Assembly (NCBI RefSeq): GCF_022045235.1
Contig: NW_027266275.1
Location: forward strand, 12,586,001-12,650,000
Length of the DNA: 64,000 nucleotides
DNA from: Haliotis cracherodii
Lineage: Eukaryota
Reading direction: 5' to 3'
Below are positions 12,599 to 19,339 of the stretch, in pieces; positions within the stretch are counted from its first letter, which is position 1; each line of letters opens with the position of its first letter. Under the pieces are notes generated by a model. The model had not been told where the DNA came from. It did no database searches and was given only the letters and a program-made list of their open reading frames with translations. The position numbers were made by a program, and so were the translations under genes.

Positions 12599-15500
12599 CT
12601 GGAAAACAAATACAGTTAATGAAGACTATTTAACAAAAATCTTGCATCTTAGTCATAAAGTACTACCTAAACAGAAAAACAAGAATCAAAACATTTGTGC
12701 AAAAAATAAACCGTAACTAGTTTCCTAAAAAATCGGCCAAATTTAGGCTGGTCATGTGACCCTTTTATGTACTTCTTCATATTGACCAATATTGTCTGGC
12801 TATGAAACTTGACATGTCTTCCTTGAAGGGACAAAATTTGGCATGATCGATGCTCATGATGTCAATCACTGGATCGTATGGTTCTGACTCGAAAACAAAT
12901 TGTATGATCACAGCACTCATCACAACACCATCATCACTGTGGGCCAACAAGGGAGACAACTTACAATCTCATTAAGATCAGATCTTAGTTCTCGCTACCG
13001 CTAAACAAAGATCTGAGGATATCCCATTAGGGGTCACGTCAGAACGACCTTTCATCCGACCAATCATAGAGTTGCTTACCAGATCATGAAAGTGACATTC
13101 AGAATATGAATAATGCAACCACGAAAATGTTAACACGTGATATTCCGAACGATAGTTACAGGTTTAACGACTGAATCCATACAATGTAGACCATCTATTA
13201 GCCATTCAAGAATGTTCTTTTGTTCAGGTTTCAAATTCATAATCAAGAATTTGTCAATATGTTTGTAAGCGTAGTTGCCGATTTGAAATTAGTGCCATAA
13301 AGTATGAGAAAGCTACCTTCTGATTGGCTAATGTCGACTTCTTGTCAGTCCTTCTATCGGTCTGTCATAGTTCGTGCAAGGTCGGTCTGAAGTGACCCGT
13401 AATGGGATGTCCTCAGATCTTTGTTTAGCGGTAGCGAGAACTAAGATCTGATTTGATTGAGATTGGACAACTTACGGCCTGGTAGTGGTGCTCATGCCAG
13501 AGACATTGTGAAGCGTTGGTGTGGTCACACGGGGCCTGGAGCAAAGCCACAGACTCTGAAAAAAACAAAGTTTAGATCTTTAGATTCTTTATTTTGTATC
13601 CAAGGCTCTTCATTTGTAACCATGGTAACAAAATGATTCCATTCGTTAATATGCCACACAAATGTTTTCTAAAGAAATACTTCTGGTATGATATTTCAAC
13701 CTTTAAATTTGGTAGGCCAAACATCCATATGTTACATAAAGATCTTATTACTTCTTTATGTTCATATTTATGTGTTTATCATTTCTCTGATGTGGGGGGC
13801 ACAGTCAGCAAAGTCGTCTAAGGCACCGCGATTCGCTGTGCAGAGTTGCGTCCCTTGGGCACGCCAGAAACCTATGATTGTGGGTTCGCATCCCGGTCCG
13901 CCCCGATTATGTTTCTAGGTTTGTCAGCACCATACCCATGCTCGTGGGTTTCACTGAAGTGGTAACTGTCTGAGACCTGCATCACTTCGGGCTTTCCTCC
14001 CACATTAAGCTGGCACGCCGTGATATAACTGGAATACTGTTAAAAGTGGCGTTAAACCCAACTCACTCACTCACTCACTATTTCTCTGATGTAAGAAGAG
14101 ATTTATATTGGTAGAATTACTCTTTACAAACTCTGTTTCGTGGATTTGCTGACATGTATCAGTAAATGCTGTAGCATCATCAATATCCTGTGACGTCCCA
14201 TCTTCCCAAGGCAAGGGAGTTAACTGACTATATAAGTCCAGTTTCCACCCTTGCCAAACTAGGCTGGAATTATTGAGTTATATTTTGGCTGGACTAACGA
14301 GTCTATGCTTAGTCCAATCAAAATTGTGTAACGAAATCGACATCTGGTTCGTAAACTGCCACGCTGATTTCGGTCGATTGCAGGACTTGCAAAGCATGTG
14401 TACCGTTAACAAGCCGTCAACAGAAATTTTCCAAATCTTTACATGTATTTAATCAAGGTGCTCACGTGATTTGATACACTTCGCAAGGTAAGACACGTTT
14501 TTTTACAAAACAGATCTTGATTTATCGATCAGAAGGCGCTGCCATTTTGTTTGAAGCAAATGCAAGTGATATGAGAGGTGGAATCTGATTGTCAACAGGA
14601 GGGACAAAGAACTGACAAAACTCGTAATGGCCACTGGTGGTGCTCTGATTGAGCCCCGAAATTCCAGCCTAGTTCAGCAAGGATGGAAACTAGTCTTTTA
14701 CAGTCAGTTAATTCCCTTGCCTCAGGAAGATGGTAAAATCAAGGCAAAGGCAAGTCCTGTATGAAACAGAAAATTACTCCAAAAATTGTTTAATATAGTT
14801 AGCTCGCACTAAGTCAATATCATTTCTAAACGTAGAATGGAAATCCACACCATAAACACCCGACTAGAAAAGAAGCACATGTGTCTACTTTGAATCTGAC
14901 TCTCATACAAAAACAAGTCCTTTCTTACCTTTGATTGAACAGTTTGTGAACAAGCGAGGGTTACTGATAACGACATCAACATGAGTGATGCTGGTCTCGT
15001 ATGCAGGGGGCTGGTATCGGAGGTGGATGGGGAGGGTGACTGATGCCGCCAGGCTGAATCCTTCATCATTGTCTGTGACTGTCTTCAGGTCAGCGTACAC
15101 ATGGAGGGTGTGCGGGGGCGAGAGGTGGGCAGGCATCTCTATGTTAACAGCTGCATCAACTAAAACCTGGAGATGATAGGAAAATAATGGATCAATAACA
15201 TGAAGACAAAAGGCAAGACCAGCATTACAAAGCTAACAGATTTAATCCAAGACTGTTGGGTATAAAATTAAATGGCCAATCATCTGAGAATTGCAGAGTT
15301 GTGTTGGGTTTTGAATTAGAGATTTGTCCTGATTGGTTTATCAGCACAATATGCCAGCTCAAGATTTCCACCAAAGGAGCAAACGTCAAAGACCTATATC
15401 ACTTCAGACTGTCGTCCCACATCAACCTGAAACGCTGTGATATAACCAAAAAATACTGTTCAAAGGGCACCCATGAAGATATGGATTAGAATATAGGTAT

Positions 15501-17727
15501 TCAGCAAACCATGCTTGCCGTAAAAGGCGACTGATGGGATCGGGTGGCCAGGCTCCCTGACTTGGTTGATGCATGTCATCATATCTCAATTGCATGGATT
15601 GATGCTCATGATGTCAATCACTAGATTGTCTGGTCCAGACTCAAATTTTTACAGACTACCGTCATATGGCTGGAATATTGCTAAATGCGGTGTTAACAAC
15701 AAATAAACAAACAAACAAACCTTAAATCCAGCCTTCTAAAGTATCCGACTTATACTTGATAAAGGAAAAATAACAAGGCTTTTTATTAAAACTAGATTCA
15801 TCAAAATAGTCTCTTCACATCATAAACATGTTGCAATGCAAATAAATCACTGAAGCACTGTATATCAAAACTGTCATGTAACAACTGTTTGTCTGCATCA
15901 AGGGTGAGTTAAACACGAAAAAGACTTTACTTTGTTTACAGGGTTAGTAAACATTTCAAAAATTCAGTGAATAGACAAGTATATCAGCATGATCAGAATC
16001 TGAAGACATGGTACAAGAAGTTGGAACCCATACCTTTGGTCCCCCAAACTGAAGCCTGGAGGACAGCTGGAAGGGGTCAACATAGATCCCTGGGGGTAGC
16101 TTCTCAACCAGGAGGATCCCGCAGTTCTGTATGTCCCCGCGGTGGTGGGGGTTCACCAGCCACTCTACTGATGTTGTCAGGTCTCTGCTCAACAAATACA
16201 CAGAGATATGCCTAAATCACCTCACGATAGATCAAAATGAAATTTCAAAATTAATTACGGTATTCGACGTAATAAGCGCCCAGGTCGCTCTCAAAATTAG
16301 AAATAGGGGGCTCTTATTAGAATATTATTTTGAGTTGAAACATCGTAAATTTTGTGGTTTATGCTGACAGTCTGAAATGTTTATATACGACAGATATATT
16401 TTCCCAGGATGTAACTGCCCATAATTAAGGGTGCATATAACATACAAGTGCGTATTATACACAAATAAATAAGTCTTGTGTACATTAATCAATTGGAAGG
16501 GGTGCTAATTGGTATTGTTCACTAGCCAATATATTAGCAAATATCGCCGTGGGCGCTTATTAGAACAGGGCACTTATTACGTCGAATACGGTATTGACAG
16601 TTATAATGGACCACCTGTAGTTACTTAGGGACCAGTCATATATTATAGTATCCGTGAAGAGCTGGGTTAGAATGGTCTTCAGCAACCCATGCTTGTTGTA
16701 AGAGGGGAGAGTGCTTGTCATAACAGGCGACTAACAGGATCAGGTGGCCAACCAGGATTTGAAACCACACCCATAGATTTCTGGCACGTCAAATGACAGC
16801 AGCAAATTCCAACGCCTTAGACAACTGACCCATCCTTGCCGCCACCATTAGAAGAAACTAATAAAATCTTAAATGTCTTTATATGTTTGTAACTCACTCA
16901 CAATACAAGCCGGAATCATTCTCCCAAGTATCTTTGAACCAAGACATACCAAGAATTATAAGTAGTGTGGCCTTAACATAGAAATTGCACAAGTCACTTC
17001 AACAAAAACAGAATGACTTAATAATGAGATTTCCCGCCATATATTTCAGGGTGTCGTTGTACAAAGCGATCTTAGCCCAAAGGTGATATTAACTCCCATA
17101 CCTTAACATAGACTTATGACAGTTGTAGCGCTAAGGTTTTTTTGTACAAAGGCACCCAGGAGTCAGGTGACATGAACTTAAACCAGGCAACAAGCCTTCA
17201 CTCACTCAGGAGTTGGAAAGATCCATCTTGTTTGACTATCTGAGAAAGGTTCTTTACAACAGTTTGTTCATGATATTGCATAATTCAAGTTGATTCAATG
17301 CCAGAAACCTAAACACTGTGATCAATCTTGTTTGATAGGCATTACTTAGAAGTTGGCGGATGACAAAACAGACACAATTTTTATGGATAATAACTTCTTT
17401 AATACTGTAAAAACGCGACGTTTCGGTATAGATCCTTATACAGTCTTGCTTGACAACGGTATAAGGATCTATACCGAAACGTTGCTTTTTTACAGTATTA
17501 AAGAAGTTGTTATCCATAAAAATTGTGCCTATCTTACTGTGATCAATCATTAGTCTGGTAGTAAGTCACATGATGATAGTCAAACCTGGTTGACAATAGT
17601 ACCTGTGGAAGCCATTTTTGTGCAGCTGTCGCTCTAGATAGGGTGTCCCAATCTTCTGGGTTGCTGACGCCAAGCAGACTACAGACGATGTAAGGACTGC
17701 TACTACTGCGGAGCTGATAGGACACAT
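12443..17727 (-). CDS. PIGX: PIG-X, GPI mannosyltransferase I stabilising subunit (PBN1 family); join complement 17727-17603,16184-16034,15166-14929,13555-13476,12598-12443 (750 nt, 249 aa)
   Basis: Signal peptide MCPISSAVVAVLTSSVVCLASA; motifs LHKNGFHRDL, LLVEKLPPGIYVDPFQL, NIEMPA, LPIHLRYQPP, APCD..CLW, VPVG + TM helix; C-terminal KLKTS (KxKxx ER retrieval); exon phases sum correctly. Confidence 0.93.
12964..13465. mobile_element. MITE family M (502 bp), 9-bp TSD
   Basis: CAATCTC...GAGATTG with long TIRs; TSD GACAACTTA at 12955-12963 and 13466-13474. Confidence 0.92.
13476..13555 (-). CDS. PIGX: PIGX coding exon 4
   Basis: SVALLQAPCDHTNASQCLWHEHHYQA; TTTTCAG acceptor, GTAAGT donor. Confidence 0.88.
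13794..14079 (+). mobile_element. SINE family B, full length with TSD
   Basis: TSD ATTTCTCTGATGT at 13781-13793 and 14080-14092. Confidence 0.92.
14199..14732. mobile_element. MITE family Y (~530 bp, CATCTTCCC termini)
   Basis: TIR CATCTTCCCAAGGCAAGGGAGTTAACTGACT / AGTCAGTTAATTCCCTTGCCTCAGGAAGATG; second copy ~40353-40854, partial ~29722-30005. Confidence 0.85.
14929..15166 (-). CDS. PIGX: PIGX coding exon 3
   Basis: VLVDAAVNIEMPAH...LPIHLRYQPP...PRLFTNC; CAG acceptor, GTAAG donor. Confidence 0.93.
15468..15720 (+). mobile_element. SINE-like family C (~260-280 bp, no obvious tRNA head, (AAAC)n tail)
   Basis: GCTTGYCGTAAAAGGCGACT...GGGATCGGGTGGTCAGGCTCGCTGACTTGGTTGA...GCTGGAATATTGCT; copies ~1515-1710(-), 24703-24870, 31714-31894, 33217-33466(-), 33789-34055(-), 35892-36046, 44632-44826, 48391-48620, 48675-48835(-). 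Confidence 0.85.
16034..16184 (-). CDS. PIGX: PIGX coding exon 2
   Basis: DLTTSVEW...EKLPPGIYVDPFQL...GGPK|GT. Confidence 0.93.
16258..16591. mobile_element. Tc1/mariner-pogo-type MITE
   Basis: TA|CGGTATTCGACGTAATAAGCGCCC ... CTTATTACGTCGAATACGG|TA; near-identical inverted copy at 22735-23076. Confidence 0.88.
17328..17535. mobile_element. Palindromic insertion derived from a Penelope-like element pseudo-LTR
   Basis: ~70-bp inverted arms 17371-17440 / 17459-17529; flanked by 13-bp direct repeat ACTGTGATCAATC (17315-17327, 17536-17548). Confidence 0.75.
17448..17485 (+). ncRNA. Minimal type I hammerhead ribozyme-like motif (U3-A8 variant)
   Basis: GC-TTGACAA-C-GGTATA-AGGATC-TATACC-GAAA-CGT-T-GC; core, perfect 6-bp stem II, palindromic AACGTT stem III. 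Confidence 0.55.
17603..17727 (-). CDS. PIGX: PIGX first coding exon
   Basis: Minus strand TTTCAG|G-ATG...CACAG|GT; signal peptide + KNGFHR. Confidence 0.85.
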
Positions 17728-19339
17728 CCTGAAAGCTGATGATTTTAAAAACTGCCAATCAGTCCATCAAGTAAATAAATAAACAGTACATCCTGTTACT
17801 GATATAAATTGACCACTCTTAGTTAAGGATGTCTGTTAGAACTGAGCACCTTCACCTCACTATGCTAAGTAAGTGTGTGAGTGAGTATTGTTTTACGCCG
17901 CTTTTAACAATATTCCAGTAATATCACGGTGGGGGACACCAGAAATGGGCTTCACACATTGTACCCATGTCGGGAATTGAACCTGGGTCTTCGATGACAA
18001 GCGAACGATTTAACTACTAGGTTAACTGACCGCCCCTGCTGATAAAGAGTTGTTTGTGGTTTTATTGTCAAGTCAGCAATATTCCAGCTATATGACATCA
18101 ACCTGTAAATAAACAGGAGTGAAATTATGAGTGAGTGGGTTGGGTTTAACGCTGCTTAGAAAAGTGACAACACATTTCAGCTTGATGTGGGAGGAAAGCC
18201 CGAAGGAATGCAGGTCTTAGATGTTTACCACTTTATTGAAACCCACGAGCAGGGGTATGGTGCTGACAAACCTGGAAACATAATTGGGGCAGACTTTGAT
18301 TTGAACCACGATCATTGGTTTCTGGTGTGCCCAAGGGACGTAACTCTGCACAGAGATTTGTGATGCCTTCTATAACCGGGTACAATGGCACAATCAACTA
18401 TGCCTGTCCCCAAGCCTGACCACCCAATCCATATTTTTATTACAAGCATAGCTTGCTCGGGACCAATTCTAACTCAGGGAGGGGGATGATAAAGAGACAG
18501 AAATAATTTACACTGTAAAGATTTACATTGTCAAGTCAAATAAAACATTGTCAATACATTTATGTCCTAACTTCTATGATAGTGGTCACATAATATTTAT
18601 TCTGACATATGCACTCTTATATAACATTAACTATTCTTGAAATTTATATATATATCTAGTTCTATCATTTCAGAAAGAGCTAAAGCCCTGTAACAAATGT
18701 TATATTTGGGATAACACTTTCTTAGAAAAGTACAGAATCTAGTACTTGGTGTGTGTCGGTGGTTGAGTCCCATATATAACATTTGTTATATTTGATCACT
18801 TTCTAAATGGCATAGAGTGTTCATAGCGTTCGGCCATGGGAGCATTGCCAAATAACACTTGTCAGAGGGGTACACAAAGTATGTGATCCAGGCTACCAGT
18901 TGTCTCGAGATGGGACCTTCTTCTTCAGTCAATGATGTACAAAGTGCAACCCTTATACCTACGTTAAGAATACTGTGGAGAAGAAATATATCACACTGCT
19001 CAACATATTTATTTTCACAAAAAAATGCTGCTCACATTGATAAGGGTACCTTACAAGTTAGTTGTCTTATTTAGTGTACTACACTAGCTCCCGGCTACAC
19101 TATATCATGCTTGCTGAAAAACGGAAGGATTAATCAAACGATATTTTTCATGATATTGGTGAAAAGATAACTTGTCTCTCTAAAATCTGGTACTGACAGC
19201 TTGTAGAGCTAGCCACCTACGGATACAAATATGATATTGATATATTCTTAATTTCATGTGTACTTGATTCATTTACTTTCTGTACAATTTCTTGTTGATA
19301 TATACTAAGCGGGAAATAAAATAACATCATTATTAATAC

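Follow-up and report, generated by a model that had tools for sequence, protein, structure and literature searches.

We analysed a 64,000-nucleotide window of the genome of the abalone Haliotis cracherodii (NCBI RefSeq assembly GCF_022045235.1, contig NW_027266275.1, positions 12,586,001 to 12,650,000 of the forward strand), in which a preliminary description, made from the letters alone, had reported a Penelope-type minimal hammerhead ribozyme in an intron of PIGX. The motif lies in a 208-bp insert that we interpret, with a probability of roughly 0.8, as a pair of 5'-truncated pseudo-long terminal repeats (pseudo-LTRs) of a coding Penelope-like element (PLE), arranged head to head between 13-bp target site duplications (TSDs), with the hammerhead as a passenger and probably inactive in this copy. 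From copies across the genome we further propose, with a confidence only a little above even, that the hammerhead lies within the first 45 nt of the PLE transcript, that every inverted insertion combines one long-start and one short-start priming event on uncut RNA, and that long interspersed nuclear elements (LINEs) encoding an RNase H home to Pol II TATA core promoters, cutting about 20-25 nt past the TATA box without a sequence consensus. The hammerhead itself is one more host family for a class already described, in a variant already known.

The insert belongs to a coding PLE family. A homology search with its right arm gave 54 scored matches from 998 candidates (90-100% alike), several of which continue upstream into a reading frame, and these copies therefore identify the insert as two pieces of the pseudo-LTR of a coding element. 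A protein search with the PLE open reading frame (ORF) had 3491 candidates, of which 150 were scored, and gave 151 matches. Within the parent family, the longest open frame (594 aa, 5'-truncated) matches the reverse transcriptase (RT) domain RVT_1 at E 5e-11 and, weakly, telomerase RT at E 0.028; its C-terminus is nearest to GIY-YIG clusters (score 0.96, PF01541 on 15-21% of members), Pfam GIY-YIG alone reaching only E 0.19, and by eye the linker between RT and endonuclease (EN), where the Penelope/Poseidon clade has no zinc finger, contains no cysteines. A parental element with RT and GIY-YIG domains, as the preliminary description had postulated, thus exists. The GAAA of the hammerhead follows the ORF stop by 232-233 nt, and an informal count found this spacing of 232 nt, or one near it, at 12 of 19 family-A coding loci (e.g. 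L031, L032, L034, L039, L042, L043, L046). The hammerhead could be placed in the PLE pseudo-LTR for families A-D, and in five loci (L158-L162) the tail continues into an ORF start, MPIKQ(F/V)IRRLHGDVAI.

Within the insert, the two arms form an 80-bp inverted repeat (17365-17444/17456-17535, 91% complementary). The long-tailed arm begins within stem II, so that the U3-A9 core is absent and GAAA-CGUC-GC is retained, which bears out the earlier view of the inverted arm as a 5'-truncated second copy with a canonical GUC triplet. The suggested TSD-flanked insertion is likewise upheld, by the 13-bp direct repeat and by an empty site in run X19, where one contig runs from 17314 to 17536 with about 3% other letters and a single copy of the repeat; this empty site is one contig of one run. 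PIG-X is encoded on the minus strand, and its exons at 17603-17740, 16032-16184 and 14929-15164 are joined gap-free in one contig each of runs X1 and X4 (presumed RNA). The complete motif is accordingly antisense to a gene spliced around the insert, as had been claimed, and the empty site together with the spliced intron points to a young insertion in a spliced PIGX intron.

The same layout recurs throughout the genome. Our survey took in 49 inverted pairs, drawn from loci L001-L065 and L096-L135; 7 loci were excluded because of overlap with others, and L112 and L113 duplicate each other. The 40 regions L096-L135 represent 43 of the first 47 core places on C1 (4 skipped), and an inverted pair is present in 21 of these 40. 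One end falls at reference 535-537 and the other at 495-510 in 45/49 pairs, the remaining four have one long and one odd end, and no pair has two long or two short ends. A direct repeat of 11-17 bp accompanies 39/49 pairs and measures exactly 12 bp in 20. Spans range from 117 to 2881 bp with many different junctions, and arm lengths vary between copies. The exact central junction of the window insert occurs at 2 places genome-wide, the second (L136, the same locus as L119) having different flanks, its own TSD and the same long/short layout; L136 carries none of the changes that are private to the window copy, namely GUU, two within the long arm and a further one close to the short end. The preliminary description had taken the insert for a non-coding mobile family of about 200 bp; because its central junction occurs only twice, and with arm lengths that differ between copies, we find no support for a separate mobile family.

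An inverted copy and a tail on one end are known features of PLEs (PMC8557442, PMC3846280, PMC2377424), and a PLE tail of 30-40 bp has been described (PMC8557442, PMC11167929). The family resembles Penelope/Poseidon-type EN+ PLEs such as anole PAc (PMC11167929) and A. vaga Pen2a (PMC3846280; for the layout see PMC8557442) in its RT with a C-terminal GIY-YIG domain and the hammerhead in the pseudo-LTR; in an inverted 5'-truncated copy, a 30-40-bp tail on one end and a short TSD; and in an ORF start within the tail and a TATA box about 20 bp before an initiator (Inr)-like sequence. It differs in the position of the ATG, which in PAc is at the start of stem II (PMC11167929) and here comes some 76 nt downstream of the cut site, with the consequence that cleavage would take off leader alone. 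We found no direct report of twin priming in PLEs in the open literature, subscription papers and Repbase/Dfam notes being outside the search.

On the plus strand, the motif reads as described: G17448 and C17449 precede U3 (17450), A8 (17455), A9 (17456), an extra C (17457), stem II (17458-17463/17470-17475), GAAA (17476-17479), CGU, U17 (17483), GC and a T-run. Its occurrence by chance is excluded through copy number, the 33-nt core having 885 exact copies genome-wide against 0 for a control pattern and a looser hammerhead pattern having 4970 matches against 3. With 885 core copies, and a position downstream of an ORF of RT + GIY-YIG type, its assignment as the minimal hammerhead of a PLE pseudo-LTR holds. 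The features of minimal hammerhead ribozymes (min-HHRs) that we found are an extra base before stem II, G10.1-C11.1, a helix II of more than 4 bp, a palindromic 15.1-16.1 without loop 3, and an NUH triplet. The loopless palindromic stem III proposed earlier stands as a palindrome, of which helix III proper is the 4-nt ACGU; the 6-nt AACGUU exists because the window copy has U at position 17 and is not helix III proper. The cleavage triplet is GUC in 48/49 family tails (40 loci), and GUU in the window's complete motif.

A motif scan found no second motif of the kind on either strand of the window, and a candidate from a relaxed scan, antisense within the ORF end, was dropped for want of UGA core spacing or NUH context. 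Rfam hammerhead models gave no match at E<=10 in window positions 16000-19000 and four family loci; the Rfam matches at the motif were to generic long-hairpin miRNA models, scored below gathering and were rejected.

The U3-A8 pair had been presented as a covaried form of the core; we do not regard it as a surprising variant: Cervera and de la Pena (2014; PMC4209133) already describe it, with about 1,300 matches in S. mansoni, alongside the extra base, the palindromic 15.2-16.2 and opposite-strand pairs 100-700 bp apart, and the review PMC6765202 agrees. Like Schistosoma Cercyon and other metazoan min-HHRs in that paper, the present motif has U3-A8, an extra nucleotide between 9 and 10.1, G10.1-C11.1 and a long helix II, as well as the palindromic 15.2-16.2 without loop 3 and copies by the thousand, single or on opposite strands, that derive from truncated PLEs. 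Unlike the usual form, its helix I is 2-3 bp, against 4-5 there, although a 2-bp helix I is reported for D. virilis; the paper also reports that monomers were uncleaved and dimers cleaved at a low level (PMC4209133). No paper was found that names the present family in abalone; the species alignments in the supplements of PMC4209133 may include mollusc examples. Non-LTR retrozymes (bioRxiv 10.64898/2026.07.22.740005) are similar in being short, non-coding and PLE-related with a type I hammerhead, but they are tandem units with a hammerhead in each, whereas here there is an inverted pair with one complete motif.

The position of the RNA start was approached through full-length pseudo-LTRs and 5' breakpoints. 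In full pseudo-LTRs of families A, B and D, TATAWA lies 36-40 nt before U3, and family C has a near match; this position suggests that transcription begins at the Inr-like TCAGTC, some 8 nt ahead of the core. The window copy lacks the upstream T and the TATA box, and its right arm starts at reference 407. Among 43 full-core arms, 7 adjoin a LINE tail; the other 36, from copies chosen for an intact core, start at 407-416 in 21 cases, at 401-406 in none, at 385-400 in 3 and further upstream in 12. This step is consistent with reverse transcripts that extended to the 5' end of the RNA and retained the cut site. Cleaved templates would leave copies that begin at the predicted cut site (reference 450), and no cluster of such starts was seen in a set of arms that favours intact cores. 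A rotifer PLE has TATA about 20 bp before an Inr-like sequence (PMC3846280), and D. virilis Penelope a TATA-less internal promoter (PMC2377424). We also asked whether the ...ATTCAG that precedes the hammerhead might serve as a 3' splice site, as in D. virilis, and discarded the idea because an AG is missing at that place in sister families.

Taken together, these data place the likely start of the parent RNA at a TATA/Inr promoter, some 8 nt ahead of the hammerhead core. The PLE protein likely nicks both target strands about 12-13 bp apart, and each nick would prime reverse transcription at one of two internal starts that define the tail (about +94 and +130). One cDNA would then reach the RNA 5' end and the other stop within stem II, the two being joined head to head. 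The template of the complete arm was presumably uncut RNA, because that arm spans the cut site. For an anole PLE in vitro, the tail lies between two internal RT starts, both target strands are extended, hammerhead mutants have no effect on insertion and uncut RNA is used (PMC11167929). The strict long/short pairing and 12-bp TSD provide genomic evidence on PLE insertion, and the copies that extend to the probable 5' end of the RNA and retain the cut site agree with the use of an uncut template in vitro. If active, the parent motif would be a slow dimeric or protein-assisted ribozyme that takes about 42 nt off the 5' end; self-cleavage of the family motif, as a dimer or with protein help, is a prediction from sequence.

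Several observations weigh against this account. No intact full-length PLE ORF was found in one copy (L162 has the start but is broken). Family-E loci are mixed, strict TATA being absent from 3 of five; the choice of copies with an intact core excludes by design any 5' start downstream of 416; and both the RNA start and its cleavage are predicted from assembled contigs, which hold no read-level start. Among the records listed, none of RNA type carried the PLE, an outcome that speaks neither for nor against its expression. The common central junction at L136 could mean that the insert was copied as a unit, and in rotifer PLEs the palindromes seen where inverted copies meet have led to the proposal of self-priming on an antisense template (PMC3846280; Arkhipova 2013).

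These last two points each lend themselves to a different explanation of the head-to-head pair. If the 208-bp palindrome were a non-autonomous unit, transcribed and reinserted by the PLE protein, L136 with its long/short layout, other flanks and own TSD would be its sister, and both arms do end in the cis signals that the protein would need. We regard this as improbable, however: two exact junctions compare with 885 cores, the window's private changes are absent from L136, nearby junctions differ base by base (L007, L112, L118) as for independent hotspot events, and the palindrome has no TATA box. Alternatively, the copies could arise by self-priming or fold-back on one template, such as an antisense RNA, and not from two opposite nicks. 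This we consider unlikely, while granting it real weight, as several junctions here carry short palindromes or microhomology. Fold-back alone does not predict the strict long/short pairing or the 12-bp TSD, the more truncated arm can be either one, and the both-strand extension from two internal starts seen in vitro (PMC11167929) also speaks against it.

The remaining question is whether the insert does anything in PIGX, with an antisense hammerhead or a PLE RNA in trans cutting the pre-mRNA at GUC, or a hairpin regulating splicing or editing. The PIGX-sense arm does retain GAAA-CGUC-GC, and the intron RNA would form an 80-bp hairpin of -107 kcal/mol. Yet X19 lacks the insert, the window copy has private changes that include one at the cleavage triplet, the GUC site is paired within the hairpin, and a duplex in trans would be weak, at -3.5 kcal/mol with the family form; together these points make a function at PIGX very improbable, and we see no sign of a role for the hammerhead there. 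The passenger status of the motif, as part of a truncated PLE pair, agrees with its predicted folding. Stem II has a pair probability of 0.0 in a whole-insert transcript (predicted fold -112 kcal/mol) against 0.9-1.0 in the motif alone, for which stability relative to shuffles is modest (z -1.9 to -2.5; family copy -0.5). Cleavage at this locus appears unlikely because the triplet is GUU, stem II is buried in the long hairpin and the PIGX-strand arm has no core; by its GUU and this predicted hairpin, the copy would also be a poor candidate for dimer cleavage.

Between families, the core and stems covary, as the preliminary description had anticipated: U3-A8 alternates with C3-G8, and stem II and, less clearly, stem I change. 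By eye, the 3-8 pair among the first 100 looser-pattern matches is U-A in 79, C-G in 20, U-G in 1 and C-A in 0, and 19 hand-picked representatives have 10 U-A and 9 C-G; independent changes at this pair are few because the change is between families. In these 19, 83% of cells pair and 6/12 pairs are changed on both sides, with a covariation score attained by 0/500 shuffles and a number of doubly changed pairs attained by 215/500, figures that are inflated by relatedness and by several columns fixed by the search pattern. Double-sided changes affect 3/6 pairs of stem II, the two outer G-C pairs being fixed by that pattern. The second pair of helix I is G-C in 9, A-U in 5, G-U in 2 and unpaired in 3, and the third is unpaired in 11/19; stem I has 2 bp in the window insert's family vs 3 bp in the main C3-G8 family.

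The canonical C3-G8 core occurs in at least four more hammerhead families (L138-L157), which share the downstream AATAAAGAAGTTG and tail; one of them has GUU throughout with a 3-bp stem I. A tblastn search for a linked ORF in 20 loci of the C3-G8 families gave a match in L155 only. Separately, L106:432-664 contains a tandem array of five 39-nt units, each of which corresponds nearly exactly to one hammerhead, stem I to stem I; the array may reflect slippage or a copied small circle.

The predicted PLE start site is also the landing place of another element. An APE-RT-RNase H LINE with 548 exact 3' ends in the genome is inserted just before the PLE hammerhead, in the same orientation. Families A, B, C, E and G all have such insertions, the TSD measures about 9 bp, and family A alone provides 67 exact LINE (TAAG)/PLE junctions. 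LINEs tailed by (TAAG)n, (TCAG)n or (CAA)n lie a few bases before the hammerhead at L048:4330-5300 and others. We examined 71 LINE tails (L066-L095, L163-L202), made up of the first 30 listed 3' ends and 41 out of the 46 after these, 5 having been passed over because they were neighbours or had come up before; by eye, a PLE start site follows 15 of them. The LINE TSD was found, blind to TATA, for 33 tails, giving 32 distinct sites with enough flank and leaving 39/71 tails unusable. TATAWA starts 16-30 nt before the TSD at 12/32 sites vs 10/736 other bins, and once PLE and tandem sites are set aside, at 10/26 vs 7/598 bins (Fisher p 4e-11), although the sites are not fully independent because some targets are copies of the same repeat. 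The insertions outside PLEs that have a TATA box lie 19-28 nt past it. Strict TATA is absent from 16/26 LINE sites, and the cut site has no sequence consensus.

We infer that these are promoters and that some protein tether might bring the LINE to them. Tx1-Mar/SINEU insert in Mariner-N4_AMi (PMC4494074), and TRE5-A and Ty3 at Pol III starts (PMC5006619); the LINE resembles these in using a fixed place in another element or a fixed promoter distance, and differs from them in being of the APE-RT-RNase H type, in cutting at a fixed distance after TATA with no cut consensus, and in occupying at least 5 PLE families as well as non-PLE sites. No direct report of a LINE in Penelope or aimed at TATA promoters was found in the open literature, again with subscription papers and Repbase/Dfam notes outside the search. 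If the proposal is true, this would be a LINE counterpart at Pol II of Ty3/TRE5 targeting, landing mainly on Penelope and other transposon promoters. This side result outweighs the hammerhead in importance: were a LINE to recognise TATA promoters through distance instead of sequence, its insertions would map transcription starts where a genome lacks annotation, and would offer a testable case of one transposon seizing another's promoter.

Further LINEs before a hammerhead were seen at L033, L036, L038, L063, L065, L110, L111, L122, L126, L128 and L133, among others. An apparently full-length LINE (L184:1245-6745) sits at a family-B PLE start site and encodes a 565-aa ORF1 without Pfam match and a 1264-aa APE-RT-RNase H ORF2. 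At L054:1235-3438, a near full-length family-C PLE has a LINE on each side, the 5' LINE joining within stem II. At L087, L089 and L070, LINE tails lie 13-23 nt before an ATG, behind a TATA box, and the reading after the ATG resembles what we take to be a FLYWCH/Mutator-type transposase start.

Table 1. Positions of the insert, its parts and the surrounding PIGX features in the window.
Feature	Position	Strand	Remarks
Minimal type I hammerhead	17448..17485	+	U3-A8 core, 6-bp stem II, 2-bp stem I, GUU triplet; predicted cut after 17483
ATTAAA, possible poly(A) signal of the pseudo-LTR	17497..17502	+	AATAAA in most sister families
Predicted PLE transcription start	17442..17442	+	A of Inr-like TCAGTC; suggested by TATA 30 nt upstream in full pseudo-LTRs, the 5' breakpoint step and the LINE site
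Left TSD	17315..17327	+	13 bp (12 bp if the last C is the element's); single copy at the empty site, run X19
208-bp insert	17328..17535	.	two 5'-truncated PLE pseudo-LTR copies, head to head
Right TSD	17536..17548	+	
Long-tailed arm	17328..17441	-	PIGX sense strand; reaches the family's long 3' end
36-nt tail extension	17329..17364	-	one arm only; reference positions 502-537
First five codons of PLE ORF (MPIKQ)	17328..17342	-	within the tail; family copies L158-L162 stay in frame
Short-tailed arm	17441..17535	+	from the predicted PLE RNA 5' end, through the complete hammerhead, to the short 3' end
PIGX exon upstream of insert	17603..17740	-	ends ...GFHR, GT donor
PIGX intron with insert	16185..17602	-	GT..AG ends
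PIGX exon downstream of insert	16032..16184	-	exon joint ...GFHR-DL...
PIGX exon matching PF08320 (PIG-X)	14929..15164	-	boundary about 15162-15164

The PIGX introns are also filled with high-copy short repeats of very high contig depth (window 15400-15710, 16210-16820, 17020-17160 and 17870-18160).

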